From: a virus
Virus record (IMG/VR): IMGVR_UViG_3300037264_007252
Direction: 5' to 3' (one strand)
DNA length: 14,077 nucleotides
The position numbers and the translations under genes were made by a program. Below the pieces are notes generated by a model. That model had not been told where the DNA came from. It searched no databases and worked only from the letters and a program-made list of their open reading frames with translations. Below are positions 354 through 13,222 of the stretch, piece by piece. The first letter of the stretch is position 1. Each line of letters begins with the position of its first letter.

Positions 354-686
354 ATGCGTTGCTTCAAGTGCGCTCAGGAGATCACCGAGCTGCCCGAGGG
401 CAATCCCGCGCGGGAGAGCGCGGACTGGCACTACACGCCCGCGTTCGTCGTCGAAGTGATCGGCGGCGGCCCGGCCGGAGGCGGTCCTTGTCGCTGCGCC
501 GTGGTCTGCTGGCCGTGTATGCACGAGATCCAGCCCGACATGTGGATGTCCGGCGAGGGCTGGGACTCGATGGCGCCCGCTGTGCTCTTCGAGAAACTGC
601 CCGCCTTGGACCACGATGTTGAAACCTGCTGGGACGTCGAGACGTACAGTGACGTCGCGGTCCCGGCGCTCGAAGGAACACGATGA
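354..686 (+). CDS. Small Cys-rich zinc-ribbon-like hypothetical protein (CFKC ... CRCAVVCWPC)
   Basis: ATG at 354 with a GGTGGAG Shine-Dalgarno 8 nt upstream. Protein-like composition from this Met onward, in contrast to the upstream half of listed ORF 18..686. Paired CxxC motifs. Confidence 0.55.
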   Translation: MRCFKCAQEITELPEGNPARESADWHYTPAFVVEVIGGGPAGGGPCRCAVVCWPCMHEIQPDMWMSGEGWDSMAPAVLFEKLPALDHDVETCWDVETYSDVAVPALEGTR

Positions 687-751
687 TGATTTCCAAGGGC
701 AGCGCGTCAACGCGGGAGTCTGAGTCATGAGAGAACAACCCTGGAGACGTC

Positions 752-946
752 GTGAAGCTCGGCGAGAACATCCGGTTCGAGGTCGTCAAGGTACGAGCGC
801 GGCTAAGCTGTTCGACGTGCCAGGTCACTGAAGTGATCCCACCCTCGATCAGTGGTCGGGCGCTTATCGCCCAAACCAAGAAGTTTGCGCGTGCACACCA
901 GCACTGGCGATCGCGCTGGTCGAAGGGAGCTGATCATGCGACGTAA
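752..946 (+). CDS. Small hypothetical protein (GTG start), contains CSTC
   Basis: GTG start preceded by GGAGAC. Its end overlaps the next gene by 11 nt. Short, and composition is only moderately convincing. Confidence 0.35.
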   Translation: MKLGENIRFEVVKVRARLSCSTCQVTEVIPPSISGRALIAQTKKFARAHQHWRSRWSKGADHAT

Positions 947-1313
947 GCGTCCGCTCCCCGCGCGTCCACGTTTCACGGTTCGCATCGTCCTCGGCGGTAT
1001 CGAAGGCGTGGGCCCGAAGCGGCACTACGCTGCGCTCGCCGAGTTCTACGTCGACAACGGCCAGACGTACGACCAGGAACTTTCCGTCCCGGCCGCGTTC
1101 GTGGCCTACCGTGTCACCATGCAGTGCGTAGAAAACCGGCCCGGCCCGCCCAACGCCGAGCGTGCGTTCGCCAAGATGGTCATCGACGCGATCCCGCACG
1201 ACGTCTGGGACGCAGGCATCGCAGCGATCGCCGCCCGTGACCCGCACGGCCAACGTACCGCGCAGGAGATCATCGAGCGCTGGCGCCAGGGAGAATACGA
1301 TGCAGCTCGTTAG
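936..1313 (+). CDS. Hypothetical protein
   Basis: ATG at 936 with a GAAGGGAG Shine-Dalgarno. High third-position GC. Its stop overlaps the next gene's start. Confidence 0.5.
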   Translation: MRRKRPLPARPRFTVRIVLGGIEGVGPKRHYAALAEFYVDNGQTYDQELSVPAAFVAYRVTMQCVENRPGPPNAERAFAKMVIDAIPHDVWDAGIAAIAARDPHGQRTAQEIIERWRQGEYDAAR

Positions 1314-2028
1314 CGCTACGCAGCCGGACTGGACAGAACGCCGACAGGCAATCGCGAACTGGATCCAGTTCGTCGGCGACTTCGGTCAGATCGATGTAGA
1401 CGCGCTCCTGCCCTGCATCGAGGACAACGCGTTCGTCGAAGCCGTCGAGGCTGTTCTCAAGGCTGCGGGACGACCCTGGGCCTCGTTCGAGCACGTCCGC
1501 GACTTCTGCGTGCAGCGCCTCTACGGCGAGAAGTCGATAGCCCATACAGGGCCACCCCGGCCTCGGCACCGGGTCACGCCGTTCTCGGTGCCGATGGAGT
1601 TGCTTCGTAGCGTATTCACGTTCAAGGACCACAGAGGGCGCGACCAAAGTGAGTTCGTCCCTGGACGGCTCCGCATCCGCGAGGAGAGCTTCGTCCTTGA
1701 TGTCCCGATGAACGGTGAAGCCGATCATCGCTTCCTGGTAACGCAGGACCAGATGCTTCTCCTCACGACCGTATGGGCACGCGTCGTCCCGCCGATCGAA
1801 CCGCTCCGGCACCGTGTCGAGATCATCGATGAAGGCGCCAACCGTCGTCAGGACATGCTGCTGTGGGCGCTCGTGACCGAGCCGCAGCCGTTGTTCCTGC
1901 CGCTCTCACCCAACACCTCTGTGAACGTCAGGGTTCGACCGGGCTGGGCACCGCAATCGAACGAGAACACGCCGCCCATACACGTGCTCATGTCCTTTGA
2001 AGGCTGGTCGTATCTAGGAGGCTGGTGA
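1300..2028 (+). CDS. Hypothetical protein (243 aa)
   Basis: Internal ATG at 1300 of ORF 1162..2028, with a GGGAGAA Shine-Dalgarno. The stretch upstream of 1300 in this frame is Arg/Ser-rich junk that overlaps the previous gene. The stop overlaps the GTG/ATG of the next gene. Confidence 0.55.
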   Translation: MQLVSATQPDWTERRQAIANWIQFVGDFGQIDVDALLPCIEDNAFVEAVEAVLKAAGRPWASFEHVRDFCVQRLYGEKSIAHTGPPRPRHRVTPFSVPMELLRSVFTFKDHRGRDQSEFVPGRLRIREESFVLDVPMNGEADHRFLVTQDQMLLLTTVWARVVPPIEPLRHRVEIIDEGANRRQDMLLWALVTEPQPLFLPLSPNTSVNVRVRPGWAPQSNENTPPIHVLMSFEGWSYLGGW

Positions 2029-2660
2029 TGACGCTGCAACATGAACTGGAACAAGCACAAGCCGAGGTCGCACGCTACCGCGAGCGCGAAGCGTACTTCG
2101 CCAAGGCGCTGGGTGTCACCGACGGCGGCCAGTACCGGGCCGACTGGCCGAGTTCGATCGAACGGGTTCTGCGGGACTGCAAAGCCAAGGACGAGGCGCT
2201 GACGAAGGCCGCCGATACGTTTCGGGACTTCCATGCAGCTATGACGCTGCTCGGGCACGATCTATCGGCCAGCGCGGCAGCGATTGCTGAGGAAGCCACA
2301 CGCAAAGCGATCGGCCCCGACCGCCCGGCCCCGTGTCCGATCCCAATGATCCTTCACTGCCCCGAGTGCAAGACGCAGCACGTGGACGAGGGGATCTGGG
2401 CGACGACACGCTTGCACAAGTCGCATCTGTGCGCGGCCTGTAACCACACGTGGCGGGTCGCTGACGTTCCCACCGTCGGTGTAGCAACGTTGCCGAGCGT
2501 TGCCCGTGATCGCTGCTGCGATCGTTGCGAGGAACCCAACATCATGGACGCCCCCGACGGGCCCGTCTGTCACTGCGGAAAGCCGTCGGCGTTCGAGTCC
2601 GGCGTGTGCACCGACTGTGGGAACTGGGACCTGGCACGCTGGCAACGCGAAGGCGCATGA
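2025..2660 (+). CDS. Hypothetical protein with an N-terminal coiled-coil and a C-terminal multi-CxxC (double zinc-ribbon-like) region
   Basis: AGGAGG Shine-Dalgarno at about 2015. Start is GTG 2025 or ATG 2028. The N-terminus 'LQHELEQAQAEVARYREREAYFAKAL' is heptad-like. The C-terminus carries CPEC...CAAC and CCDRC...CHCG...CTDCG clusters. Confidence 0.55.
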   Translation: MMTLQHELEQAQAEVARYREREAYFAKALGVTDGGQYRADWPSSIERVLRDCKAKDEALTKAADTFRDFHAAMTLLGHDLSASAAAIAEEATRKAIGPDRPAPCPIPMILHCPECKTQHVDEGIWATTRLHKSHLCAACNHTWRVADVPTVGVATLPSVARDRCCDRCEEPNIMDAPDGPVCHCGKPSAFESGVCTDCGNWDLARWQREGA

Positions 2661-3214
2661 TGACGCCCATGAACTCGATCGACGACGTCAAGGCACTCCT
2701 CGAACGTCTGCCAGAAGACCAGCGTAAGGCGTGCCTGAACTTCCTCAGCAAGAACGGCGAGCGCATGCTTCGCGCGCCTGGCTCGACGCATAACCACCAG
2801 GCGTGGAAGGGTGGCTACCTCGACCACGTCGCCGAGGTGATGAAGCTAGCCATCGCCTTCTACGACGCGTTTGTGGTGCTGGGACGTCCACTGCCCTTCA
2901 CACCGGCGGACGCGTTGGTCGTCCTGTTCCTGCACGATGCTGAGAAGCCGTGGCGCATCATCGAACACGAGGGTGGTTACGCGCACGGGTTCCCGAAGGA
3001 TCAGGCCGACGTGTTCCGTGAGCGGCTACTGCAAGAATACGGCATCTGGGGCACGCTGACGGCGGCCCAGAGGGACGCGCTTCTCTACGTCGAAGGTGAG
3101 AAGGACCGCTACACCCCGGACCAGCGCAACATGAGCGAGCTGGCAGCGTTCTGTCACCTGTGTGACGTCACGTCGGCGCGCATCTTCCATGACTATCCGA
3201 GGCGAAACAGATGA
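2657..3214 (+). CDS. HD-domain metal-dependent phosphohydrolase-like protein
   Basis: ATG 2657 forms an ATGA overlap with the upstream stop. The motifs 'STHNHQAWKGGYLDHV' and 'LVVLFLHDAEKP' match the H..H / HD pattern of the HD superfamily. Confidence 0.5.
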   Translation: MMTPMNSIDDVKALLERLPEDQRKACLNFLSKNGERMLRAPGSTHNHQAWKGGYLDHVAEVMKLAIAFYDAFVVLGRPLPFTPADALVVLFLHDAEKPWRIIEHEGGYAHGFPKDQADVFRERLLQEYGIWGTLTAAQRDALLYVEGEKDRYTPDQRNMSELAAFCHLCDVTSARIFHDYPRRNR

Positions 3215-3235
3215 TCAACCGCCGAAACTAGAACC

Positions 3236-3505
3236 TTGTCCATCCCCGTCGCGCTCGTCTGTCTCGCGGTCGCACTTGTCGGTGCCGTTGTGCTTGTACG
3301 CAACGCACGCAGGCAACGTGACAAGGTGTTCCGCGCGCAGGATGTGAATACCGAGGACGTGCAGCGCCAAGACGAGATGATCTGCGCCGAGTGCACCCAG
3401 TCGATCGATGCCGCGATCGACCTCTACATTGGCGACACAAGTCGTGGCACGTGGTGGCACCGCAAATGTTATAAGCGCGCAACGTTTAGGAGCAGGAGAC
3501 CGTGA
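3236..3505 (+). CDS. Small membrane-anchored zinc-finger protein (N-terminal TM helix, CAEC...HRKC)
   Basis: TTG start with no clear Shine-Dalgarno, so the start is uncertain. Third-position GC is very high throughout. A hydrophobic helix 'IPVALVCLAVALVGAVVLV' is followed by a CxxC...HxxC motif. Confidence 0.4.
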   Translation: MSIPVALVCLAVALVGAVVLVRNARRQRDKVFRAQDVNTEDVQRQDEMICAECTQSIDAAIDLYIGDTSRGTWWHRKCYKRATFRSRRP

Positions 3506-3696
3506 GCGAGAACAAGAACGGGAACGAGCGCAGGGAAGCCGTTCAGGTCTTCATGTGCGGCGGCGATCGGTGTCCGAAAGACGGACAGCCGCATCAATGG
3601 GATGGGCCAACGCAGACGACAGAACTGTCCGAGTCGTCGACGTGCTCGAAGTGCAGCCTCGCCCACATCGACTGGTGTTTGATGAACGCGCCGTAG
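3502..3696 (+). CDS. Small zinc-ribbon protein (CGGDRC ... CSKCS)
   Basis: GTG 3502 forms a GTGA overlap with the upstream stop, with AGGAGCAGGAG upstream. Two Cys pairs. Confidence 0.45.
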   Translation: MSENKNGNERREAVQVFMCGGDRCPKDGQPHQWDGPTQTTELSESSTCSKCSLAHIDWCLMNAP

Positions 3697-3744
3697 GTGC
3701 GTCCAGAGCAACGAAACGAAAGAGCAGAGGAAAGGGGATACGAC

Positions 3745-6378
3745 ATGAGCGAACCACAGAGGATGGAGAAGCGCGATCTGGTGCTGGCACCTGGCACCTA
3801 CGCGTACATGCAGGACGTGACCAAGGGCGTGGTCAAGACGTACACCGGCCCGACGGTGATCAACCCGACGGCTCAGGAAGTCCCGGTCGTCTACGACCCG
3901 GACGAGCGAACGTTCAAGCGCGCGGACAGCCTGGAGGCGGCGCTGTGCACGGCGGTGGTGGCCGACGAGGGCTTCTACATCGTGCTCAAGAACCCGGCCA
4001 AGCAGAACAAGCATCCCGATGACGGGGCAACGAGCATGAGCGCCGACCTCGACGTCGGCCGCGCAATCATCATCCCCGGTCCGGCCGTGTTCGCCCTTTG
4101 GCCGATGCAGGCCGCCGAGGTCGTCCAGGGCCATCATCTGCGCTCGAACCAGTACCTGCTGGTTCGCGTCTACAACGAGGACGAAGCCCGGGCGAACTGG
4201 AAGAAGGCGGTCGTCAAGCCCGCTGAGGCAACCGCCGTCGGGGTCACGCCGCCCGAGAAGCCAGTCGTGACTGCACCGCCGCCTGCCGATCTCACCGTCG
4301 GCAAGCTGATCATCATCCGAGGCACGGAAGTCTCGTTCTACATCCCACCGACCGGCGTCGAGGTCGTGGCGGACAGTGCAAACACGTACGTGCGCGACGC
4401 GCTCACGCTGGAGCGTCTGGAGTACTGCATCCTCGTCGATGAGAACGGCAAGAAGCGCTACGAGCGCGGTCCGCAGGTCGTGTTCCCGATCCCGTCCGAG
4501 CGCTTCATCGAGCGCGAAGCCAAGGGGCACGCTCGGCGCAAGTTCTCGGCCATCGAGCTGAACGAGATCCAGGGCCTGCACATCAAGGTGATCGCTGACT
4601 ACAAGGACGAGCGCAGCGGCAAGGATCACAAGGCGGGCGACGAACTGTTCATCACCGGGAAGGACGAGGCGATCTACTTCCCCCGCGAGGAACACTCGCT
4701 CATCAGCTACGACGGCCGATCCAAGCACTTCGCCACGGCCGTCCCGGCGGGCGAGGCACGCTACGTGATGAACCGGGTCACCGGTGAAATCCGTACGGAG
4801 CGCGGCCCCAAGATGCTGCTCCCGGACCCAAGGATGGAGGTGATCGTCCGCCGCGTCCTGTCAGACAAGCAGGGCACGCTCTGGTACCCAGGCAACCCGG
4901 AGGTGCTCGCCTACAACCAGTGGCTGCGTGACGTTCTCTCGAAGGCCCCGACCACGCGCTCGGGTGCGGTCTCCGAAGGCGACTTCGAGCGCAACGCGAA
5001 GGTGGCAACGCAGCAGGCACAGCGAGGTGGTGGTGCCGCGCCCGTCGCAGCGGTCATGGCAATGTCGAACCAGGGCTACGCTGCGATGGAGAAGAGCCTG
5101 GTGTCGGCCGACCAGGCTGCGATGATGGGTGACGAGTTCACTCGGGGCTCGAACTACACCCAACCGCGCTCGATCACGCTCCAGACCAAGTACGAGGGCG
5201 CGCCTGCGATCCAGGCGTGGACCGGCTACGCGGTCATGATCGTGTCGAAGACCGGCAACCGCCGGGTCGAGATCGGGCCGAAGAACGTGCTCATGGAGTA
5301 CGACGAGGCACTGGAAGTCCTGGAGCTGTCAACGGGCAAGCCGAAGACGACCGACAACCTGCTCAAGACCGTCTACCTGCGCGTCCTCAACAACAAGATC
5401 GGCGACATCGTCACTGACATCGAGACGAGTGACCACATTCGACTCAACATCAAGCTCTCGCTGCGGGTCAACTTCGAGGGCGAGCCGTCGAAGTGGTTCG
5501 AGGTCGAGAACTACGTCAAGTACCTCACCGACCACGTACGTTCGGTGCTCAAAGGCACGGTCAAGAAGCAGAACATCGAGCAGTTCTACGCGGGCGCGGT
5601 CGACATCATCCGCGACACCATCCTCGGCAAGCAGGTGGAGAAGAACGAGCGGCCGGGCATGACGTTCAAGGAGAACGGCATGCGCGTCACCGACGTCGAG
5701 GTGCTGGAGGTGAAGATCACCGACCAGACCGTCGCCGGGCTGCTGGCTCAAGCGCAGCACAACGTCGTCAAGGGCAACATCGAGCTGGCCCAGGCAGCAC
5801 GGGACCTCGACGTGGCCCGTCAGCAGGAGGAGTTCACGCGGCAAAAAGCCGACTTCAAGGCCGTGACGCTGAAGCGCGTACTGGGGCTGGAAGTCGACGA
5901 GATCGTCGAGAAGCAGAAGGTCGCGGAGACGCGGATCCGGACGCAGCGGGAGGAGCAGTCCCAGCTCAAGGAGCTGGAGGTCGAGAAGCAGGCCGTGATC
6001 GATACAGCGTTCGCGGCGAAGCTGAAGCGCGAGAAGGATGAGGCCGATCAGAAGCAACAGATCAACGCCGCGCTCCAACAGCTCACGATCGAGCTGACCA
6101 AGGCCGACGCAGACGCGGTGGTTCAGCGCTTTGCAGCAGCTCAGCCGGGCTTCGCTGAAGCGCTTCGCGCGCTCCAGAACGACGACGTGTTCGTCAAGGT
6201 CGCACAGGCATGGAGCATCCAGCGCGTGATCGGCGGCGAGAACGTATCCGACGCCCTCAAGCGCGTGTTCGAGGGCACGCCGGTCGGTACCATCGTCGGC
6301 AAGCTGCTCGGCAGCAACGGCAACGGGCAACACGAAGGGGTGAAGCCGACGCCGTCGGCGCCCGCCACCCGGCCGTAG
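3745..6378 (+). CDS. mvp: Major vault protein (MVP) homolog, full length (877 aa): MVP repeat domains + SPFH-like shoulder + coiled-coil cap-helix
   Basis: ATG 3745 is preceded by a strong purine-rich Shine-Dalgarno (GAGGAAAGGGGA). The listed ORF begins at GTG 3697, immediately after the upstream stop. Segments match mammalian MVP as recalled from memory. 'DLVLAPGTYAYMQDVTKGVVKTYTGPTV' resembles the MVP N-terminus '[29 protein letters not shown]'. 'AGDELFITGKDEAIYFP' and 'ARYVMNRVTGEIRTERGPKMLLPDPRMEV' resemble 'AGDHWLIRGPLEYVP' and '[29 protein letters not shown]'. 'RRVEIGPKNVLMEYDEALEVLELSTGKPK...IVTDIETSDHIRLNIKLSLRVNFE' resembles the shoulder '[29 protein letters not shown]...[23 protein letters not shown]'. 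About 150 residues of E/Q/K/A-rich coiled coil sit where the cap-helix lies. Total length is close to human MVP (893 aa). Confidence 0.8.
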   Translation: MSEPQRMEKRDLVLAPGTYAYMQDVTKGVVKTYTGPTVINPTAQEVPVVYDPDERTFKRADSLEAALCTAVVADEGFYIVLKNPAKQNKHPDDGATSMSADLDVGRAIIIPGPAVFALWPMQAAEVVQGHHLRSNQYLLVRVYNEDEARANWKKAVVKPAEATAVGVTPPEKPVVTAPPPADLTVGKLIIIRGTEVSFYIPPTGVEVVADSANTYVRDALTLERLEYCILVDENGKKRYERGPQVVFPIPSERFIEREAKGHARRKFSAIELNEIQGLHIKVIADYKDERSGKDHKAGDELFITGKDEAIYFPREEHSLISYDGRSKHFATAVPAGEARYVMNRVTGEIRTERGPKMLLPDPRMEVIVRRVLSDKQGTLWYPGNPEVLAYNQWLRDVLSKAPTTRSGAVSEGDFERNAKVATQQAQRGGGAAPVAAVMAMSNQGYAAMEKSLVSADQAAMMGDEFTRGSNYTQPRSITLQTKYEGAPAIQAWTGYAVMIVSKTGNRRVEIGPKNVLMEYDEALEVLELSTGKPKTTDNLLKTVYLRVLNNKIGDIVTDIETSDHIRLNIKLSLRVNFEGEPSKWFEVENYVKYLTDHVRSVLKGTVKKQNIEQFYAGAVDIIRDTILGKQVEKNERPGMTFKENGMRVTDVEVLEVKITDQTVAGLLAQAQHNVVKGNIELAQAARDLDVARQQEEFTRQKADFKAVTLKRVLGLEVDEIVEKQKVAETRIRTQREEQSQLKELEVEKQAVIDTAFAAKLKREKDEADQKQQINAALQQLTIELTKADADAVVQRFAAAQPGFAEALRALQNDDVFVKVAQAWSIQRVIGGENVSDALKRVFEGTPVGTIVGKLLGSNGNGQHEGVKPTPSAPATRP

Positions 6379-6596
6379 CGCAGGTACGTGGGGTTCCAGG
6401 CCGTGAAAACGTCATCGGACGCTGGAACAGCCAAGGCAGCGAGGGACGCCTCAAAACCACGCGGGGACGCTCGCGTGTCTAAGAGGCAGGGGCACCTTGG
6501 CATTTTCGTTTTCGATCTGAACGGCTACGTTGGGATCCAATCGAAGTGGCGGCCGATAGAGGGTGATCTGCGCCAAGCCACGAACGCCAGCGAAGC

Positions 6597-6605
6597 TGGT
6601 AAACT
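6597..6605 (+). promoter_or_regulatory. Possible extended -10 element (TGG TAAACT) about 55 nt upstream of the zinc-ribbon gene
   Basis: TGnTAnnnT pattern in the 280-bp gap after the MVP gene. No convincing -35 box. Confidence 0.2.
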
Positions 6606-6659
6606 GTGATCCGGGCAGCGACTAGCCCAGCGACTGAACTGAAAAGGACGAGAGACATC

Positions 6660-6974
6660 ATGACGATTGAGAATCAGGACCAGCAGCTCGTGTGCATCGA
6701 CTGCAAGCAGGAGTTCGTCTTCACGCAGGGGGAGCAGAAGTTCTTCGCCGAGCGGAACTTCACTCCACCGAAGCGCTGCAAGCCCTGCCGCGACGCCAAG
6801 AAGGCGGACAAGGCACAGGGAAGTGGTGGCGGTGACAACGGCGGCGATCGCGTTGCCGCTGGCAACGGTGGCGGCAACGACAACGCAGCCTTCTGGACCC
6901 GAGGCGACAACCGGGGAGGTAGCCGGGACGAGAACGAGGGGCGTGGCGGCGGGAACCGCCGTAGGCGCAGGTGA
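6660..6974 (+). CDS. Zinc-ribbon protein (CIDC-x17-CKPC) with a C-terminal Gly/Asn/Arg-rich (RGG-like) low-complexity tail; putative nucleic-acid-binding
   Basis: ATG 6660 with an AAAGGA upstream. The motif 'LVCIDCKQEFVFTQGEQKFFAERNFTPPKRCKPCRDAKK' is the conserved zinc-ribbon module I recall fused to some bacterial DEAD-box helicases and cold-shock proteins. The tail 'GSGGGDNGGDR...GNGGGNDN...RGGSRDENEGRGGGNRRRRR' is RGG/Gly-rich. Confidence 0.6.
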   Translation: MTIENQDQQLVCIDCKQEFVFTQGEQKFFAERNFTPPKRCKPCRDAKKADKAQGSGGGDNGGDRVAAGNGGGNDNAAFWTRGDNRGGSRDENEGRGGGNRRRRR

Positions 6975-7129
6975 AACTGCTCCAGATCGCGCGGTATTCG
7001 ATCTCGTGCGCTGAATGCGGCTTCGTCTGGTCGACCATTGCACTGCGTCGTCGTGGTGACCGTGAGTTCGACAAGGCGAAGCGTCGGCACGTTCGTGTGC
7101 ACGCCACGAAACGGCCGAAGAAGCAGTGA
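6971..7129 (+). CDS. Tiny basic ORF (52 aa), 'VKLLQIARYSISCAECGFVWSTIALRRRGDREFDKAKRRHVRVHATKRPKKQ', not in the supplied track
   Basis: GTG 6971 forms a GTGA overlap with the stop of the zinc-ribbon gene. High third-position GC. Basic tail. It is in frame with, and 12 nt upstream of, ORF 7142. Confidence 0.3.
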   Translation: MKLLQIARYSISCAECGFVWSTIALRRRGDREFDKAKRRHVRVHATKRPKKQ

Positions 7130-7141
7130 CGGTCGCGTCCC

Positions 7142-7621
7142 ATGCAACTCTCGCAGAAGTACGTCGTCTTGATCGCGCGAGCACGGCTGGTTCAAGCTCG
7201 TCGTGATGACACGAACGGCGCCGCTCTTGCCGATGTTGTCGGCCAGCGCATCGCTTGGACTGCACTTGCGGCGAGCGCAGACGCAGGGCCAGGCGCGTTG
7301 CGTGGGCGTGCACTATGGCTCATCGGTTGGACACTCGGGCAACTCGTCGGGCAAGGTTTTGAGCCCGAGGAGATTGCCCGGCCCGAGGGCCTCGATGCGA
7401 TCGAGGCCGTTGCCGTCGTCGCAGCGATCCAGAAGCGGCGCAACATCGCACACGTGAACCAACGCCCGCGTGGGCCGACGTTTGGTGGGACCGCACCGCG
7501 TCAGCAGTTGTTCATGCCGGTGAACGCTGGTAGGCCGCTGGCCGCGACCTGGGCTGCCGTCTACAAAGCGGCGCGTACCGAGCTAGACTGCTGCTTCGAT
7601 CCAGCCGGACGCCGACAGTGA
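7142..7621 (+). CDS. Hypothetical protein
   Basis: ATG 7142. Its stop forms an ATGA overlap with the next gene. Third-position GC is moderate. The antisense alternative (6525..7313 minus) is Ala/Arg-rich junk. Confidence 0.4.
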   Translation: MQLSQKYVVLIARARLVQARRDDTNGAALADVVGQRIAWTALAASADAGPGALRGRALWLIGWTLGQLVGQGFEPEEIARPEGLDAIEAVAVVAAIQKRRNIAHVNQRPRGPTFGGTAPRQQLFMPVNAGRPLAATWAAVYKAARTELDCCFDPAGRRQ

Positions 7622-8409
7622 TGGACGAGACTCGCGCAGCACAAGTCGCAGACGCGATCGCCTGGTTGGAACTAACCGGGCGTGTCACGCACGTGCCCGT
7701 CACACGTCTCACCCGGCGGCTGCGTGAAGGCGACGAAGCTCTCATCGACGCCATGTTGGCGCTACTCACCATCCCAGGGCGTCCCGGTGAACGTCTGGAG
7801 GTCTTACGCGATTTCCTGATCACGCAAGAGTTGGGCGAGCCCGAGGAATTACGTAGCAGCAGCGACTGGACCTCGTCGCCGTCACCGTTCAACGTCCCCG
7901 AGTGGGCACTACTCCCCTGGCTCGGGAAGGACATCAAGCGGCTACGCATCCGCCAGTTCTACGACTGTCTGCTCGTCGGTGGCGACGGCCGGTTGCCGGG
8001 GACGACAGGGGCAACGGTGCCGATGCGGGCAGCAGGACAGTGGCGGCTGTTCGGTAACACGCACATCGGTGAGCCGCTGATGACGAACCTGCAAGTCGCC
8101 GGGCAGTTTTGCTTCGATACGATGTTCGTCGCGACGGCCTGGTGGCTGGTGACGCTCAACTCTTGGGCGAGCGCCGAGGCATTCTTCGCGCGCAGCCACG
8201 TCTCGTTCGAGGTCGGTGATCGGCCCGAAGCTGTCGTGCAGGCCCTGCCACTATTTCGCGCACACCAACCGATCTTCGTGCCGGTCCCGCACCGTCAGAA
8301 CGTCGCCGTGGTGCTCAACTTCCATGGCGATCTGCCATTGCCGAGCGCCGGACCGTCGATCCCGGTGTACGTCTACGTTGAGGGCTGGGCAGCCAAGGAC
8401 GTGCGGTGA
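7618..8409 (+). CDS. Hypothetical protein (263 aa)
   Basis: ATGA overlap start. Protein-like composition with several Trp/Phe-rich stretches. No family recognised. Confidence 0.5.
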   Translation: MMDETRAAQVADAIAWLELTGRVTHVPVTRLTRRLREGDEALIDAMLALLTIPGRPGERLEVLRDFLITQELGEPEELRSSSDWTSSPSPFNVPEWALLPWLGKDIKRLRIRQFYDCLLVGGDGRLPGTTGATVPMRAAGQWRLFGNTHIGEPLMTNLQVAGQFCFDTMFVATAWWLVTLNSWASAEAFFARSHVSFEVGDRPEAVVQALPLFRAHQPIFVPVPHRQNVAVVLNFHGDLPLPSAGPSIPVYVYVEGWAAKDVR

Positions 8410-8414
8410 CCGTC

Positions 8415-8840
8415 TCACCACCGTCTGCGGCGGGAGCGTGGCGCGTCATCTTCCTTCTGACGCCGTGCCTCCTCGTAAGCCTCGTTGCGCCGACGGTCTG
8501 CCTCGCTCTGCCAACCCTTCCCACGACAAGCGAAGCACATGGAGATCACACCCTCCTCGGCTTCGTGGGTACGTCCACGTGGCGCGATGCCGGTTCCACC
8601 GCACTTGTTGCACACCCAAAATGGTGCGTCTTCGCGCATGAGCCCAACAATGACGTGCGCGGCGTTGAACCAATTTTCGGGCACAAGCTCTACTGGCTCA
8701 CGGTAGTCTTCGTGATCCGGTCCACGATAAAGCTTGCGTGCAATTTTCTCGGCTTCAGTGTCAAATTTTTGTGACGGCAACCCAGACTGCGCACGCAGGA
8801 TTGCATAACGACGGCGTATCTCGTCGATGGAGCGGCTCAC
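8415..8840 (-). CDS. Hypothetical zinc-ribbon protein (CNKCGGTG...CFACRGKG) with a basic C-terminus; locally lower GC
   Basis: GTG start at 8840 with GCCAGGACG upstream. Protein-like composition. It converges on gene 7618..8409 with only a 5-bp gap. Confidence 0.5.
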   Translation of the reverse strand: MSRSIDEIRRRYAILRAQSGLPSQKFDTEAEKIARKLYRGPDHEDYREPVELVPENWFNAAHVIVGLMREDAPFWVCNKCGGTGIAPRGRTHEAEEGVISMCFACRGKGWQSEADRRRNEAYEEARRQKEDDAPRSRRRRW

Positions 8841-8913
8841 GGGCGTCCTGGCGTTACACGCTGACCGCGCTTGAACACGGCTACCGCTCGTCTTGTGGAT
8901 CGACGGTGGTCAC

Positions 8914-9072
8914 CTATTCACCGTAGCTGACCATCTGCCCATGGTCACAGACGATGTAGTGACGGTCACCGGAGCGATCGGTCAGCACCACAGCAGCATG
9001 ACGGCGCACTCCGTCACTGAAGCCGCCCGTCGACCACTTACCACCTTTGGCAGCTTGCGTGCGTGCACGCAT
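8914..9072 (-). CDS. Possible small hypothetical protein ('...WSTGGFSDGVRRHAAVVLTDRSGDRHYIVCDHGQMVSYGE'); the longer listed ORF runs to 9252 and would overlap gene A by 71 nt
   Basis: The C-terminal half is protein-like. Third-position GC is only moderate and the start is ambiguous. Confidence 0.25.
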   Translation of the reverse strand: MRARTQAAKGGKWSTGGFSDGVRRHAAVVLTDRSGDRHYIVCDHGQMVSYGE

Positions 9073-9181
9073 CGCGCTAGCGGGCCCTTTGCGTGCCCAC
9101 CACGTCTGGGCTTCTTGGATGGTTGGCGTCCTCGTGCACCGTTGTGGCTTCTTCACGCAGTTCTCCTTCGCGCCTTGCGTT

Positions 9182-9673
9182 TCATACGAAGCTCTTGCGG
9201 TAGAGCTTCTCGGCGCTTCGACAGTCACCGGTGAAGGCTTGCTGGACGGCAAGATGCAGCCGCCGCTCAGAGGTCATGTCACACGCCGCGCTCTTCTTGC
9301 ACGACCGGAGCTTCATAGCGATCTTGTCGTAGTTCCCGCACCTGGGTGCATGCTGGGCCGCCCGCTCGGTCATGCGTTCCCACGGCTCAGCCTCGACCTC
9401 GTCCCAGTCATCTTCATAGTCGCCAACACGACCAGAGTTTTTCGTCGCGATACGCTTGGCGGCGCGTCCAGTGCTGACGGCCAAGAACACGCCCAGGGCG
9501 ATAAGGCCGAGAGTGATCGTTGTACCGACGACCCACATCGCGACAAGCGATTCGGCCGACGGTATGCCCTCGGCGCCAAGACCGAACATCTGATTCGGAC
9601 CGCTTTCGCCGAACCCGGGCGAAGCGGTCTCGGTGCCGTGCCCGTCCATCGTCGTGTGGGTAATCGCGAGCAC
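9182..9673 (-). CDS. Small membrane protein, paralog A (N-terminus MLAITHTT-MDGHGTETASP, GFG/GLG motifs, one TM helix)
   Basis: GTG start sits inside a 56-nt block nearly identical to the 5' end of the next gene. TM helix 'LVAMWVVGTTITLGLIALGVFLAV'. Good third-position GC. Confidence 0.55.
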   Translation of the reverse strand: MLAITHTTMDGHGTETASPGFGESGPNQMFGLGAEGIPSAESLVAMWVVGTTITLGLIALGVFLAVSTGRAAKRIATKNSGRVGDYEDDWDEVEAEPWERMTERAAQHAPRCGNYDKIAMKLRSCKKSAACDMTSERRLHLAVQQAFTGDCRSAEKLYRKSFV

Positions 9674-9680
9674 GGGTTAC
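9625..9680 (-). repeat. Copy 1 of a duplicated 5' gene segment (56 nt)
   Basis: 'cggtctcggtgccgtgcccgtccatcg' plus 'tcgtgtgggtaatcgcgagcacgggttac' recurs at 10201..10227 and 10270..10298. The two blocks have 2 and 0 mismatches respectively. In copy 2 they are separated by a 42-nt in-frame insertion. Confidence 0.7.
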
Positions 9681-10291
9681 GCTTTCTTCGGCTTGCCGAA
9701 CCCTTGAGCGACAGCAATCACCGGTGTGATCACAGGAAACAGCGACCCCAGGACGAACCACCCGATCGCCCAACCTACGCTCTGGTTTCGCTTGTAGCCG
9801 TGGTACGCGGATGCCGCGCCAGACACCGTCGACAGAACGCTCCAGATGATGACTGCCGTACTACGCGTCCGTTTCGTACGTGCGGCACGCTCCAGCGCAT
9901 CCGCAACGAGGCTTGCATCACCGCCCTCGGCGATGATCGCCGCCGCGAGCTTCTTGCGCGTGCCAGCGTCGAACTGTGCCAAGAGCTTGGCGAGGTCGAA
10001 CGCGTTGACATGGTCGAACGCACCAAACTTTGTGCGCGGCGCAATTCGCGCTGCTGTCTCCTGAATCTGCTCATCCGTCAACGCCGCGCCGAGGCCCATG
10101 ATGTCCGGCTTGCCGAACCCGGGCACGTTCCACGGCACCTTCTGTACGGAGCCGCCCCCGCCCCGGACGAAGACCGTTTCGTGAGGCGTGACGGGTGAGA
10201 CGGTCTCCGTGCCGAGCCCGTCCATCGGCGTGAGGAACTCCTTCGGCGGCAGCCTGAAAACTTCGTCGGTCGTGTGGGTAATCGCGAGCAC
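9677..10291 (-). CDS. Small membrane protein, paralog B (N-terminus MLAITHTT + 14-aa insertion + MDGLGTETVSP; C-terminal double TM; GFGKP motif twice)
   Basis: Its stop TAA is followed by CCC and then the GTG start of paralog A. Its 5' region duplicates that of A. C-terminal hydrophobic segments 'AVIIWSVLSTVSGAASAY' and 'VGWAIGWFVLGSLFPVITPVIAVA'. Confidence 0.55.
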   Translation of the reverse strand: MLAITHTTDEVFRLPPKEFLTPMDGLGTETVSPVTPHETVFVRGGGGSVQKVPWNVPGFGKPDIMGLGAALTDEQIQETAARIAPRTKFGAFDHVNAFDLAKLLAQFDAGTRKKLAAAIIAEGGDASLVADALERAARTKRTRSTAVIIWSVLSTVSGAASAYHGYKRNQSVGWAIGWFVLGSLFPVITPVIAVAQGFGKPKKA

Positions 10292-10298
10292 GGGTTAC
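10201..10298 (-). repeat. Copy 2 of the duplicated 5' gene segment (27 nt + 42-nt insert + 29 nt)
   Basis: Direct comparison of the two loci on the plus strand. The matches include the stop codon, the CCC spacer and the start codon of adjacent genes. Confidence 0.7.
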
Positions 10299-10582
10299 AC
10301 TTTCCGGCCGCGTACGACGTAGCCCAAGGCGAAGCCGGACACGGCCCCGAACAGGCCGGTGATGATGACCAGGGTCGCGGTCAGGCTCTTCGAGAAGCCG
10401 GTGTCGGCGGCTTCCTGGCCGAGGCCGTGTATCGGGTAGCCCTGTTCGATCGCGTGCGTGCCGAGGCCGTGACCGTAGACGAGCACGGGCCCGTTTTCGG
10501 CCGCACGCGCAAAGCCCGCGCTGTTGGCCGTGTAGCCGTTGGCGCGGCTGGCGCCGTTCTTCACTCTGGTCGCCGTCAGCAT
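10295..10582 (-). CDS. Small membrane protein C (HGLGTHAIEQGYPIHGLG motifs, C-terminal TM helix), first gene of the minus-strand trio
   Basis: ATG start next to the divergent promoter region. Its stop is followed by CCC and then the GTG of paralog B. TM helix 'LTATLVIITGLFGAVSGFALGYVV'. Confidence 0.5.
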   Translation of the reverse strand: MLTATRVKNGASRANGYTANSAGFARAAENGPVLVYGHGLGTHAIEQGYPIHGLGQEAADTGFSKSLTATLVIITGLFGAVSGFALGYVVRGRKV

Positions 10583-10636
10583 GGACCTACTCTATCACAC
10601 CCACGATCGCTCGCGCGATCGAGTAGAATCGCCTCT
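10583..10636. promoter_or_regulatory. Divergent promoter/operator region. Each side has a TAnnnT -10-like hexamer 6-9 nt before its start codon (TAGAAT for the plus gene, TAGAGT for the minus gene), suggesting leaderless mRNAs. They flank a CGATCGC-N4-GCGATCG palindrome.
   Basis: Sequence is 'CTACTCtatcacacccaCGATCGCtcgcGCGATCGAGTAGAATcgcctctATG'. GAGTAG is present in inverted orientation on both sides. Neither start has a Shine-Dalgarno. Confidence 0.35.
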
Positions 10637-11266
10637 ATGGCCGCCCAGTTCGAGCGCAGCGTTGAGCGCTGGCGCAAGCCCCTGGAGAAGCTCGCCGACT
10701 GGGTGCCGCTCGACTTCCTGCTCGCCTGGGTCGACAAGGAATCCAACGGCCTCCCACATGTCGTCTCATCCATCGGTGAGCGCGGCCTGTTCCAGGTCCA
10801 CAAAGACGAAGTCCCGTACCTCAAGCTCTCGGAGGCCGAGTTCCAGAAGCTGACCAAGGACACGGCGCTGGCACTCAAGACCGGCGTCAAGCAGGCCAAG
10901 CTCTACGCAAACTTCTCGAAGAAGTTCCTGGCCGAGGTCAGGGTCGAGTGGCACGGCCAGGACTTCTGGAAACTGGTCAAGCTCCACCACGCTGCCTTCG
11001 CCATGCCCCGGTATACGCTGCTCGCGTTCAAGCGCGAACATGGGCGTGGTCCGGCGAGTTGGGACGAGCTGTACAAGTTCGCTACGAAGATGGCTGCGGA
11101 GAAGAAAGACCTGATCCCCGACAAGCCGAAGTTTTCGGCCCGGCTGCGGGGACTGACCGCGAAGACGTTCAAGAACGCCGACACGGTCGGCAGCGTCGTG
11201 CCTGCAATCGCTGCTACGGACTTGCCCGCGCTGAGAACCTTCTTCCGTCTTCTAGCGGTGGCGTAG
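10637..11266 (+). CDS. Lytic transglycosylase (SLT / lysozyme-like) domain protein, no signal peptide (endolysin-like or virion-associated)
   Basis: 'DKESNGLPHVVSSIGERGLFQV' fits the SLT family signature E-S-x(7-9)-S-x-x-G-A-x-G-L-M-Q, with the catalytic Glu in 'ES'. The part of listed ORF 10274..11266 upstream of 10637 is antisense to genes B and C and was rejected. Confidence 0.5.
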   Translation: MAAQFERSVERWRKPLEKLADWVPLDFLLAWVDKESNGLPHVVSSIGERGLFQVHKDEVPYLKLSEAEFQKLTKDTALALKTGVKQAKLYANFSKKFLAEVRVEWHGQDFWKLVKLHHAAFAMPRYTLLAFKREHGRGPASWDELYKFATKMAAEKKDLIPDKPKFSARLRGLTAKTFKNADTVGSVVPAIAATDLPALRTFFRLLAVA

Positions 11267-11292
11267 CCCGGTCATCGAGATCACCGAGATCC

Positions 11293-11298
11293 GATAGA
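11293..11298 (+). promoter_or_regulatory. TAGAAT -10-like hexamer 19 nt upstream of ATG 11318 (AGGAGA Shine-Dalgarno in between). The same 'GATnnnTAGAATC' context occurs upstream of the 10637 gene.
   Basis: 'gatccgaTAGAATCcgaaacAGGAGAaaccATG' compared with 'gatcgagTAGAATCgcctctATG'. Confidence 0.25.
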
Positions 11299-11317
11299 AT
11301 CCGAAACAGGAGAAACC

Positions 11318-11521
11318 ATGCCCCGCTTCAACGTCATGCTCACGATCACCGCGCCGGTGTCCACCTCGATCGAAGTCAATGCGCCGAACGCACGTACGGC
11401 CGCTGCGAAGGCCGTACAGCACGTGTTGGAGAGTCCCGACTACCGGATCCTCGACTTCGACGGCAACTCGATCGACATCCTCAAGGACGACGTCACCGTC
11501 GACGAGGTCGAACCCGCGTGA
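11318..11521 (+). CDS. Small acidic hypothetical protein (67 aa)
   Basis: ATG with a strong AGGAGA Shine-Dalgarno. High third-position GC. Its stop forms a GTGA overlap with the next gene. Confidence 0.5.
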   Translation: MPRFNVMLTITAPVSTSIEVNAPNARTAAAKAVQHVLESPDYRILDFDGNSIDILKDDVTVDEVEPA

Positions 11522-11895
11522 GCCGCGCGACCGCGATCCTGCGTGCCGTCCGGTCATGCTTGACCGACGAGCTGCGGCTACCGAAGTATCGCGGGCACCC
11601 GAACCCGCTGCGCGGGCACTGCTCCGTCGCGAGCGAGGCCGTCTACTTCCTGCTCGGCGGCAAGCACAGCGGCTGGACGCCGACGACGTTGCGTGTCGGC
11701 GACGAGGTCCACTGGTTCCTCCGACAGCATGACAGTGGTGAGATCATCGACCCGACCGCTGGGCAGTTTGCTTGCGAGCTGGACTACGGAGAAGGGCGCG
11801 GTCGGGGTTTCCCGACGCCCCGAGGTGGCGCGAAGCAGCCACCACCGTCGAAGCGCGCTGCGAAAGTCATCGCCTGCGCACGGAGGAAGCTGTGA
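11518..11895 (+). CDS. Hypothetical protein (125 aa)
   Basis: GTG 11518 forms a GTGA overlap. The part of listed ORF 10948..11895 upstream of 11518 overlaps two other genes and is Arg-rich junk. Confidence 0.45.
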   Translation: MSRATAILRAVRSCLTDELRLPKYRGHPNPLRGHCSVASEAVYFLLGGKHSGWTPTTLRVGDEVHWFLRQHDSGEIIDPTAGQFACELDYGEGRGRGFPTPRGGAKQPPPSKRAAKVIACARRKL

Positions 11896-11908
11896 AAGGA
11901 GACCGTCG

Positions 11909-12082
11909 ATGACACGCCCTCTGCTCCTCGACAAGGACACCGTTCTGGATGACCTCGACGAAGTGCTGGGCTACCTCCGACAGCTTCGCCGCGATATCGT
12001 TGCGTCCCGAGAGCTGCCCCAACACGTCTTGCGAACTGCTGTCGAAGAGGGTGTGCGGCTTCTGGAGCACGTAGGCCGGTGA
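11909..12082 (+). CDS. Small hypothetical protein (57 aa)
   Basis: ATG 11909 with an AAAGGAG Shine-Dalgarno 8 nt upstream. High third-position GC. Confidence 0.45.
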   Translation: MTRPLLLDKDTVLDDLDEVLGYLRQLRRDIVASRELPQHVLRTAVEEGVRLLEHVGR

Positions 12083-12636
12083 CTCCAAACCGCACAAAGC
12101 CACTTGGCCTCGCCGTACCCGCGTGGTGGCGTCGTCCATCACCACGTCCGTCCGAGCACGCCATGTGCTACCGGCGCAAGGCCGACGCGCTCAACGTCTT
12201 CAAGGACTACAACCATCACGTGACTGAGAACTGGGGCGGCCTCTTGCAGCCGGACTCGACAGGCGCGACGTTCGACGCGATCAACGAGCGGTACGGACTA
12301 CGCGGCAAGAAGAAGGTCAAGTCCTTCGCCGAGGCGTACTGGGTTGCGATGCCACCGAACCCGCCCTACTGCCTGGACCGGATCGACATCAAGACGCTGA
12401 ACGAACTCCCGCCCGCGCAGGAGCACGGCGGCTTTCGTCTCCCCGACTACGTCTACGATGAGATCGCGAAACGTGAAGAGGCGCGATACTACCGCGAGCA
12501 GCTCTCACGGCGCGTGAAGCGTGAGCTTCGACGCGGACTGCATGACGCGGCAGGCTCGCGTGTCGTCGACGTCGCGCTTGTTGCAATGGGCCTCGGCGGC
12601 CTCGCGCTTGCCGTCTGGGCTGCACGAAGGAAGTAA
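12079..12636 (+). CDS. Hypothetical protein with a C-terminal TM anchor (VVDVALVAMGLGGLALAVWAA)
   Basis: GTG 12079 forms a GTGA overlap. Protein-like composition. The start is uncertain; alternative in-frame Met codons lie downstream. Confidence 0.45.
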   Translation: MTPNRTKPLGLAVPAWWRRPSPRPSEHAMCYRRKADALNVFKDYNHHVTENWGGLLQPDSTGATFDAINERYGLRGKKKVKSFAEAYWVAMPPNPPYCLDRIDIKTLNELPPAQEHGGFRLPDYVYDEIAKREEARYYREQLSRRVKRELRRGLHDAAGSRVVDVALVAMGLGGLALAVWAARRK

Positions 12637-12688
12637 GAACGCAGCGGTGATACACTCGATTCCACCGAACGAAAAGGAAGGTGAAGTG

Positions 12689-12943
12689 ATGACACGCAAG
12701 TCCAAGTCCAAGTCCAAGCCCTCCTACTGGGGCGTCTACGCCGACGGTAGGGCAGCGACAGGAAGCACCAACAAGAAACGAGAAGCTCAGGCGCTCGCTG
12801 CGCTGATCTCGATGCGTGGCATCGGTGTTGGCCGCAAGGTCTGCATCATGCAGCGCAGCAGCAGCGGCGACAAGCCGACGGGGGAGTGCTTCGAGAAGGG
12901 AATCCTCTACAAAGACGGCAAAGCGCGGCCGTCGCCGTTCTAG
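12689..12943 (+). CDS. Small basic hypothetical protein (84 aa; N-terminal KSKSKSK)
   Basis: ATG 12689 with an AAGGAAGGTGA Shine-Dalgarno. The upstream part of listed ORF 12521..12943 overlaps the previous gene and was rejected. Confidence 0.5.
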   Translation: MTRKSKSKSKPSYWGVYADGRAATGSTNKKREAQALAALISMRGIGVGRKVCIMQRSSSGDKPTGECFEKGILYKDGKARPSPF

Positions 12944-12958: not shown

Positions 12959-13222
12959 ATGACGTCAAACAACCTCAAGGATCGCCTAGCTGACTACGAC
13001 GGCGAGGTGTTGCTAGCCGACGGCTTCGACGATGCCTTCCTCGGTCTCGGCGACCGTTGCGGCCAGCCGACAGTCGCTGTCTACGATCGTGAAGCGTGTC
13101 TCGGAGTCCTCATGCAACGCGACGGTATGTCGCACGAAGACGCCGAAGAGTTTTTCGACTTCAACGTCGCTGGTGCATGGGTCGGGGAAGGCACACCGAT
13201 CTACCTCACACGGATCCCATAG
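12959..13222 (+). CDS. Small acidic hypothetical protein (87 aa)
   Basis: ATG with a GGCGGTGG Shine-Dalgarno. High third-position GC. Confidence 0.5.
   Translation: MTSNNLKDRLADYDGEVLLADGFDDAFLGLGDRCGQPTVAVYDREACLGVLMQRDGMSHEDAEEFFDFNVAGAWVGEGTPIYLTRIP

Follow-up and report, generated by a model that had tools for sequence, protein, structure and literature searches.

Small CxxC proteins encoded around a major vault protein gene in a GC-rich, probably phage-derived contig are probably independent accessory mini-proteins and not a vault module

The 14,077-bp metagenomic contig IMGVR_UViG_3300037264_007252 (the whole of which is referred to here as the window) has a GC content of 63% and carries a gene for a major vault protein (MVP) homolog (3745-6378, + strand). 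Around this gene lie seven small open reading frames (ORFs) whose products carry CxxC or CxxC/HxxC motifs: 354-686, 2028-2660 (placed at 2025 in the preliminary description of this DNA), 3236-3505, 3502-3696, 6660-6974 and 6971-7129 on the + strand and 8415-8840 on the minus strand. The preliminary description saw in them an unusual density of zinc-ribbon proteins and proposed that the two directly upstream of MVP could serve the vault as cargo, as adaptors or in assembly. Based on our data we propose a different reading, which we hold to be probable, namely that the window represents part of the genome of a GC-rich phage and that the CxxC ORFs encode unrelated, independent accessory zinc mini-proteins and not a vault module.

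The location of these genes beside MVP carries no comparative signal. We collected loci encoding MVP homologs, the first 52 including at most 10 kb of flanking DNA on each side and later about 65 in all. Tblastn with the 24 non-MVP ORFs of the window against the first 52 loci returned nothing besides MVP itself, and in the ~65 loci nothing was found, even at E<=1, by hidden Markov models of the 2028-2660, 3236-3505 and 3502-3696 families or by phmmer with the products of 354-686, 6660-6974, 6971-7129 and 8415-8840. A small ORF with paired CxxC motifs within 1.6 kb upstream of MVP was present in 0 of 46 loci. When the seven proteins were compared by tblastn with 50,697 phage genomes, including those of the huge phages LR756500 and LR756501, the products of 3236-3505 and 3502-3696 were unmatched. 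Homologs of the latter occur in other settings: in a 59-kb phage-like JGI contig together with dNK, M15 peptidase, NADAR, AcrVA2-like and zeta-toxin genes, in arrays of small ORFs beside ThyX, and in an IMG/VR contig. No MVP was detected within 10 kb of these homologs in the fetched flanks (L075/76, L077 and L080-82). Genes of the 2028-2660 type have phage genes for lysis, tail, integrase and HNH proteins beside them, and here too no MVP lies within 10 kb. As no small protein of the window recurs near MVP in the ~65 loci, and as homologs of 3502-3696 and 2028-2660 are found with no MVP within 10 kb, the proposal of cargo, adaptor or assembly factors is not supported, and genomic grounds alone do not justify pursuing these proteins as vault components.

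The order of the genes does not single out MVP either. The preliminary description had the two upstream genes translationally coupled into MVP through a GTGA overlap at 3502. This overlap, which joins 3236-3505 to 3502-3696, is genuine and has a strong Shine-Dalgarno sequence (SD), AGGAGCAGGAGA, ahead of it; the continuation into MVP is what probably fails. The MVP ORF is open from GTG 3697, and its start is most likely ATG 3745, which is preceded by an SD of its own, GAGGAAAGGGGA, and gives a product of 877 aa. With this start a gap of 48 nt follows position 3696, so that the 64-aa ORF is not overlap-coupled to MVP. Start/stop overlaps are routine along the + strand array 936-8409 (at 1300/1313, 2028, 2660, 6971 and 7621), and coupling is therefore not particular to the MVP junction. 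In an array so dense, with overlaps so common, a position beside MVP reflects where MVP happens to be located and is not evidence for a vault module.

The density of CxxC proteins was compared with that of five GC-rich, phage-like contigs that lack MVP, using curated or tool gene calls. Under a strict criterion (at least two CxxC) 4 of the 26 window genes qualify (15%) as against 13 of 154 (8%; Fisher p=0.28), and under a loose one (two knuckles plus three or more cysteines) the counts are 6/26 (23%) and 26/154 (17%, range 11-25%; Fisher p=0.42). In GC-rich bacterial MVP flanks, where ORFs were called crudely, 27 of 383 meet the strict criterion (7%; p=0.12 versus the window). One of the MVP-less contigs, L080, reaches 17-24% by itself, and phage loci that do carry MVP range from 0/32 to 6/37. 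Measured against these imperfect backgrounds the window is not exceptional among phage-like DNA, and the unusual density that had been claimed is not confirmed. The accompanying remark, that an enrichment of this kind is typical of the genomes of viruses or phages, is supported by the phage-only relatives of other genes on the contig, by the existence of phage MVPs and by the conservation of the ligands.

The motifs themselves are real. All CxxC and HxxC motifs ascribed to the seven ORFs were found in place, and for every one of these ORFs its own frame is the top-scoring of the six, although the margins are small for the shortest and thin at 8415-8840. Logan assemblies of run SRR11849544 span positions ~224-2984 and ~4057-12864 of the window with independent gene calls, which include 354-686, 2028-2660 and 6660-6974 and leave out 6971-7129. 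Compared with residue shuffles within each protein, the number of CxxC motifs is improbable for 2028-2660 (P=0.004), 6660-6974 (P=0.003) and 8415-8840 (P=0.002), while 354-686 is a borderline case (P=0.04) and neither 3236-3505 nor 3502-3696 reaches significance; we keep these last two as zinc candidates because their cysteines are conserved in homologs. Loss of the Cys pairs, or of the ORFs altogether, among homologs had been named as the outcome that would refute the observation; instead, conservation with invariant ligands was seen for four of the seven ORFs. Judged from the Cys/His ligands in their sequences, six of the seven supposed zinc-ribbon products look like genuine zinc-binding proteins, and the seventh, 6971-7129, is doubtful. 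No cross-matches were found between the small-protein families, and the CxxC ORFs would thus represent a mixed set drawn from at least five different families. A joined word-index query (3236-3505, 3502-3696, 6971-7129 and 354-686) missed homologs of 3502-3696 and 3236-3505 that other searches found, and for this reason the absence of homologs reported below for 354-686, 6971-7129 and 8415-8840 is provisional; the exhaustive negatives for these three come from tblastn against the 50,697 phage genomes and from IMG/VR pattern scans.

The 210-aa product of 2028-2660, a called gene, has a helical region at the N-terminus, a C4 zinc ribbon in the centre that is conserved, and at the C-terminus a Cys cluster that is not; its motifs are CPEC and CAAC, followed by CDRC and CTDC. 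An identical protein in the JGI/Logan data has 14,077 bp as the length of its longest contig. The ribbon has the signature PMILHCPxC...HKSHLCxxC...WRxADVPTxGV, and in the family of 13 sequences (12 homologs) C111, C114, C135, C138, H118, H130 and H133 are invariant. In the AlphaFold2 (AF2) model, strands at residues 107-110, 117-120, 132-134 and 141-143 form two hairpins, with a predicted local distance difference test score (pLDDT) of up to 90; residues 152-177 score below 50 and the C-terminal Cys cluster is not confidently modelled. The modelled central domain has the fold of a zinc ribbon with conserved ligands, and metal binding is predicted. A fold search with the model returned generic zinc ribbons only, none of them significant. 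Pfam offers no model of the domain, and no function is known for it; one phage relative is annotated 'Zn-ribbon protein'.

The ORFs 3236-3505 and 3502-3696 form a two-gene cassette. The first encodes an 89-aa protein in which a hydrophobic, transmembrane-like N-terminal helix precedes a basic stretch and, at the C-terminus, a C2HC motif (MICxEC...WWHRKC, comprising CAEC and HRKC). Its two homologs, 60-66% identical, keep the hydrophobic N-terminus as well as C50, C53, H75 and C78. As the basic stretch follows the helix, the protein is probably oriented N-out/C-in, which would place the zinc domain in the cytoplasm. A match to Prok-RING_1 (PF14446) is weak (E=0.005, 17.2 bits versus a threshold of 29.1), and membership was rejected, the score lying below the gathering threshold and C50, C53, H75 and C78 being the only ligands present.

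The second cassette gene encodes a putative C4 zinc-binding mini-protein of 64 aa with the motifs CGGDRC and CSKC. An exhaustive HMMER search yielded 34 homolog clusters (best E=2.5e-20, 65-72% identity), and 30 sequences of the family share C19, C24, C48 and C51 without exception, with H31, W33 and G35 conserved in at least 90% of them. The family signature is vFxCGGxxCPKdGxpHxWDGP...TCSKCGl...lmnxP, and 3502-3696 carries it in the form CGGx(1-3)C ... HxWDG ... TCSKCG. Its AF2 model has a mean pLDDT of 83, rising to 89-95 over residues 20-60; fold searches of PDB and BFVD gave no significant match, only generic zinc modules, and there is no Pfam match. This is an unnamed, well-conserved C4 family without a Pfam model, known only from metagenomes.

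The cassette recurs once, in the 503-bp contig L079, where a homolog of 3236-3505 is followed after 9 nt by GTG AGC GAG AAC AAG, the start of a 3502-type gene, and this is the sole conserved linkage among the small genes of the window. The conserved ~60-aa C4 family, and the way its members recur beside a membrane-anchored C2HC protein, are modest by-products of this study. On the 1-kb JGI contig L078, the 3236-type gene is followed by a different Cys-rich ORF in place of the 3502-type one (733-1029, uncalled, MKDCRH...CTICCTSC..., behind a GGGAGG SD). A fusion protein, P0018, in which an N-terminal CxxC...YHRxC region stands ahead of a 3502-type domain, was considered as a link to 3236-3505, whose motif this region recalls, and dropped, as BLASTP gave no alignment.

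The remaining four ORFs differ widely in their credentials. 6660-6974 encodes a 104-aa protein that is a bona fide member, by its sequence, of the zf_Tbcl (treble-clef) family: it matches Pfam PF13451 with E=1.3e-16 (60.7 bits versus a threshold of 24, covering model positions 1-47 of 48), contains two CxxC pairs, C12xxC15 (CIDC) and C40xxC43 (CKPC), and the gene call at the same position on Logan contig L053 belongs to the same Pfam family. One tblastn match was found among the phage genomes. No characterised function is known for PF13451, and a literature search on the accession found nothing. 354-686, gene-called on Logan contig L069, encodes a Cys-rich protein of 110 aa, a putative zinc ribbon, with seven cysteines that include C3xxC6 (CFKC), C46xC48 (CRC) and C52xxC55 (CWPC); no homolog was detected in the word-index search, a weak negative, nor in the phage genomes or the IMG/VR scan.

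8415-8840, with which the minus-strand block 10582-8415 ends, encodes a 141-aa protein with two DnaJ-type knuckles, CNKCGGTG and CFACRGKG, which are exact CxxCxGxG motifs placed 25 residues apart, start to start. Its matches to DnaJ_CXXCXGXG (E=0.012) and to PHROG entries (3e-4) are weak, and no homologs were found by the word-index search, by tblastn against phage genomes or by the IMG/VR pattern scan. Assignment to the DnaJ CR domain (PF00684) was tried and rejected (16.3 bits versus 32.7, with two repeats only). The Logan caller chose an ORF on the opposite strand here, 8406-8774 (+), and probably took the wrong strand: the coding score of 8415-8840 is slightly better, and we consider this ORF the more credible because it holds two exact CxxCxGxG motifs and completes the minus-strand block. 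The 52-aa ORF 6971-7129 has a single CxxC (CAEC) and a basic C-terminus. It was left out by the gene caller on L053, has no convincing SD and gave a weak PHROG match (E=0.0046); neither the joined word-index search nor tblastn against the phage genomes detected a homolog.

The vicinity of the cassette to MVP invites the alternative that the cassette, possibly with the zf_Tbcl protein, constitutes a lineage-specific accessory set of MVP, in which the membrane zinc finger tethers the shell and the ribbon serves as adaptor or cargo. The cassette does lie directly upstream of MVP on the same strand, terminator-like sites between the two are not above chance, the pair is kept as a unit in L079, and the RGG-like tail of the zf_Tbcl protein would suit a ribonucleoprotein partner. 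In addition, the IMG/VR contig L001 has two 4-Cys mini-ORFs (12520-12714 and 12716-12922, of 64 and 68 aa) directly downstream of its MVP gene. Yet neither cassette gene has a homolog within 10 kb of MVP in any of the ~65 loci, homologs of the cassette are absent from the searched phage genomes, the MVP-carrying huge phages among them, and the 3502 family is found in four other contexts, three of which have flank enough to show that MVP is not nearby. The mini-ORFs of L001 are not homologous to any ORF of the window, and tight packing is general in the array; given the abundance of such genes, we regard the position of the L001 mini-ORFs beside MVP as coincidence. Such an accessory set is in our judgment very unlikely. 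That the cassette proteins are dedicated partners of a phage vault-like shell, 3236-3505 as tether to the host membrane and 3502-3696 as adaptor or cargo, is to be considered highly improbable; if true, this would be the first time that a set of accessory proteins of a prokaryotic or viral vault had been defined genetically.

A different objection is that the enrichment is partly an artefact, some of the listed ORFs being no genes but long spurious ORFs of the kind that GC-rich DNA yields, in which case fewer CxxC genes than counted would be present. This could apply to 6971-7129, with its one Cys pair, no gene call and no clear SD; the gene caller moreover took the opposite strand at 8406-8840, and 354-686 is without a detected homolog. 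We consider this objection unlikely, as four of the ORFs have homologs with invariant ligands, two exact CxxCxGxG motifs in 8415-8840 are very improbable by chance and this ORF fits the minus-strand block, and 354-686 is gene-called with its own frame scoring best. The zinc-ribbon proteins could also form a coordinated nucleic-acid-handling module of transcription or replication factors, proteins in which zinc ribbons and treble clefs are common. The non-significant fold matches were to zinc modules of RNA polymerase subunits, MCM and XPA, and one relative of the 2028-2660 ribbon lies under an annotated helix-turn-helix regulator. Nevertheless, the Pfam matches of the window ORFs include no domain of a polymerase, helicase, primase or nuclease, the families do not co-occur in other contigs except for the cassette pair, and not one fold match was significant, leaving a coordinated module of this type scarcely probable.

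Several points weigh against the reading that we favour. The searched flanks were limited to 10 kb and the contigs are mostly fragments, and it is possible that phages with a 3502-family gene carry a distant MVP; an analogous, non-homologous association of mini-ORFs with MVP, as in L001, is likewise possible. Every contig in the density comparison came to light by way of a CxxC protein, an ascertainment bias that makes each count too high by about one gene, and the bacterial background consists of crude ORF calls. Finally, there are no capsid, terminase or tail genes in the window, which could possibly be a non-phage mobile element.

Small zinc-stabilised proteins are routine content of phage accessory-gene arrays, and we propose that those of the window are of this type, scattered as they appear to be through a long, co-directional and tightly packed gene array. 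In each protein four Cys/His ligands would hold one zinc, stabilising a fold of 30-60 residues, with the ligands substituting for a hydrophobic core that a fold of this size is too small to have. We infer that they function independently, each most likely acting alone on a target of its own in an accessory, regulatory or host-interaction role. The cassette appears to behave as a mobile unit, and its second gene is present in other phage-like contigs without a nearby MVP. As the fold matches were non-significant and to generic zinc modules, they indicate no target.

The window is most likely a piece of the GC-rich genome of a large phage. Several genes outside the set of Cys-pair ORFs have relatives that database searches placed in phages only. 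The huge phage LR745206 (635 kb) has an ORF with 42% identity (E=2e-30) to the 184-aa product of 2660-3214. The 125-aa product of 11518-11895 has relatives in Myxococcus phage Mx1 (47% identity, the matched region being annotated as a NUDIX hydrolase), in phiCbK-like Caulobacter jumbo phages, where they adjoin DNA polymerase I, and in the huge phage LR756501, itself a carrier of MVP. For 12959-13222, relatives were found in a Tunturiibacter jumbo phage and in SPO1-like Bacillus phages. The host is plausibly a myxobacterium. Megablast of the whole contig against phages found no close relative, and MVP scans of metagenomes, genomes and IMG/VR returned nothing nearer than 66% identity and hence no syntenic relative. 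With the exception of an SLT-like transglycosylase, the majority of the remaining window ORFs have no Pfam match; the window contains no tRNAs and has no Rfam matches, ten window proteins gave 0 matches to PADLOC defence models at E<=0.01, searches of the window proteins against NCBIfam and PDB sequences gave nothing useful, and a promoter and terminator scan returned site numbers within chance expectation.

Some further features of the contig were observed. The product of 2660-3214, which has no Pfam match, may be HD-like, as HxxH and HD motifs are seen by eye. 1300-2028 and 7621-8409 are paralogs with a common N-terminal domain of ~60 aa (33% identity; E=5e-6 in a pairwise comparison), have no database homologs and flank the MVP block on both sides. 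On the minus strand, a 36-nt direct repeat, 97% identical, at 9651-9686 and 10269-10304 spans the start codon and 5' leader of the adjacent paralogs 9182-9673 and 9677-10291, membrane-protein genes whose products both open with MLAITHTT.

The product of 3745-6378 is a full-length MVP homolog, in which both the shoulder (Pfam MVP_shoulder, 1.9e-27, 96.1 bits versus a threshold of 25) and the vault repeats (Vault_3, 4e-9, 36.9 bits versus 28.8) pass the Pfam thresholds. Homologs with 42-66% identity come from Myxococcota, from Riflebacteria, from five viral contigs of IMG/VR and from two huge phages, LR756500 and LR756501. The nearest are chromosomal genes of Myxococcota metagenome-assembled genomes and Nannocystis (47-66%; the closest Myxococcota 58-66%), and among phage and viral loci the closest is that of L001 (50%). 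Straight after MVP lies a gene-free gap of 281 nt (6379-6659), the longest in the + strand array, with a predicted fold marginally more stable than shuffles (z=-1.67); a vault-RNA-like element was sought there and no Rfam match was found.

Several of the mini-proteins partly resemble known systems. The central CPxC...HKSHLCxxC...WRPADVPTxGV ribbon of 2028-2660 is common to proteins of the Burkholderia phages BcepF1, Maja and Karil-Mokiny-1 and of Caudoviricetes sp. MW202621 (38-53% identity), whereas their N- and C-terminal regions are unrelated to those of the window protein and the second Cys cluster is not conserved. 8415-8840 has the exact CxxCxGxG knuckles in common with the DnaJ CR domain PF00684, but possesses two repeats where DnaJ has four, and no J domain. 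The Prok-RING_1 model PF14446 can be aligned weakly, over its first half, with the C2HC region of 3236-3505, yet a RING has eight ligands as compared to four in 3236-3505, in which an N-terminal membrane helix is fused as well. 6660-6974 is phage-borne and adds to the zf_Tbcl domain of PF13451 a long C-terminal tail rich in Gly, Arg, Asn and Asp.

With the minor components of the eukaryotic vault (PARP4/vPARP MINT and TEP1) the mini-proteins have in common only the idea of passengers of an MVP shell; no window ORF has a Pfam match to the PARP, vWA, TROVE, NACHT or WD40 families, to PARP4 MINT/INT or to TEP1, and phage genomes were likewise without TEP1 or vPARP in a preprint on phage MVPs (bioRxiv 10.1101/2023.11.10.566534). 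Bacterial and phage MVP homologs have been described earlier (PMC3762200; bioRxiv 10.1101/872010; bioRxiv 10.1101/2023.11.10.566534). The MVP of the window is 43% identical to the copies in the 462-kb LR756500 and the 735-kb LR756501, and, in agreement with the last of these reports, the neighbours of MVP vary from phage to phage. Unlike the published phage MVPs, which belong to low-GC gut phages, the copy described here resides in DNA of 63% GC and has its nearest relatives in Myxococcota. With it the few phage MVP genes reported are joined by one from GC-rich DNA, probably that of a myxobacterial phage, and such a gene could aid the reconstitution of a non-eukaryotic vault.

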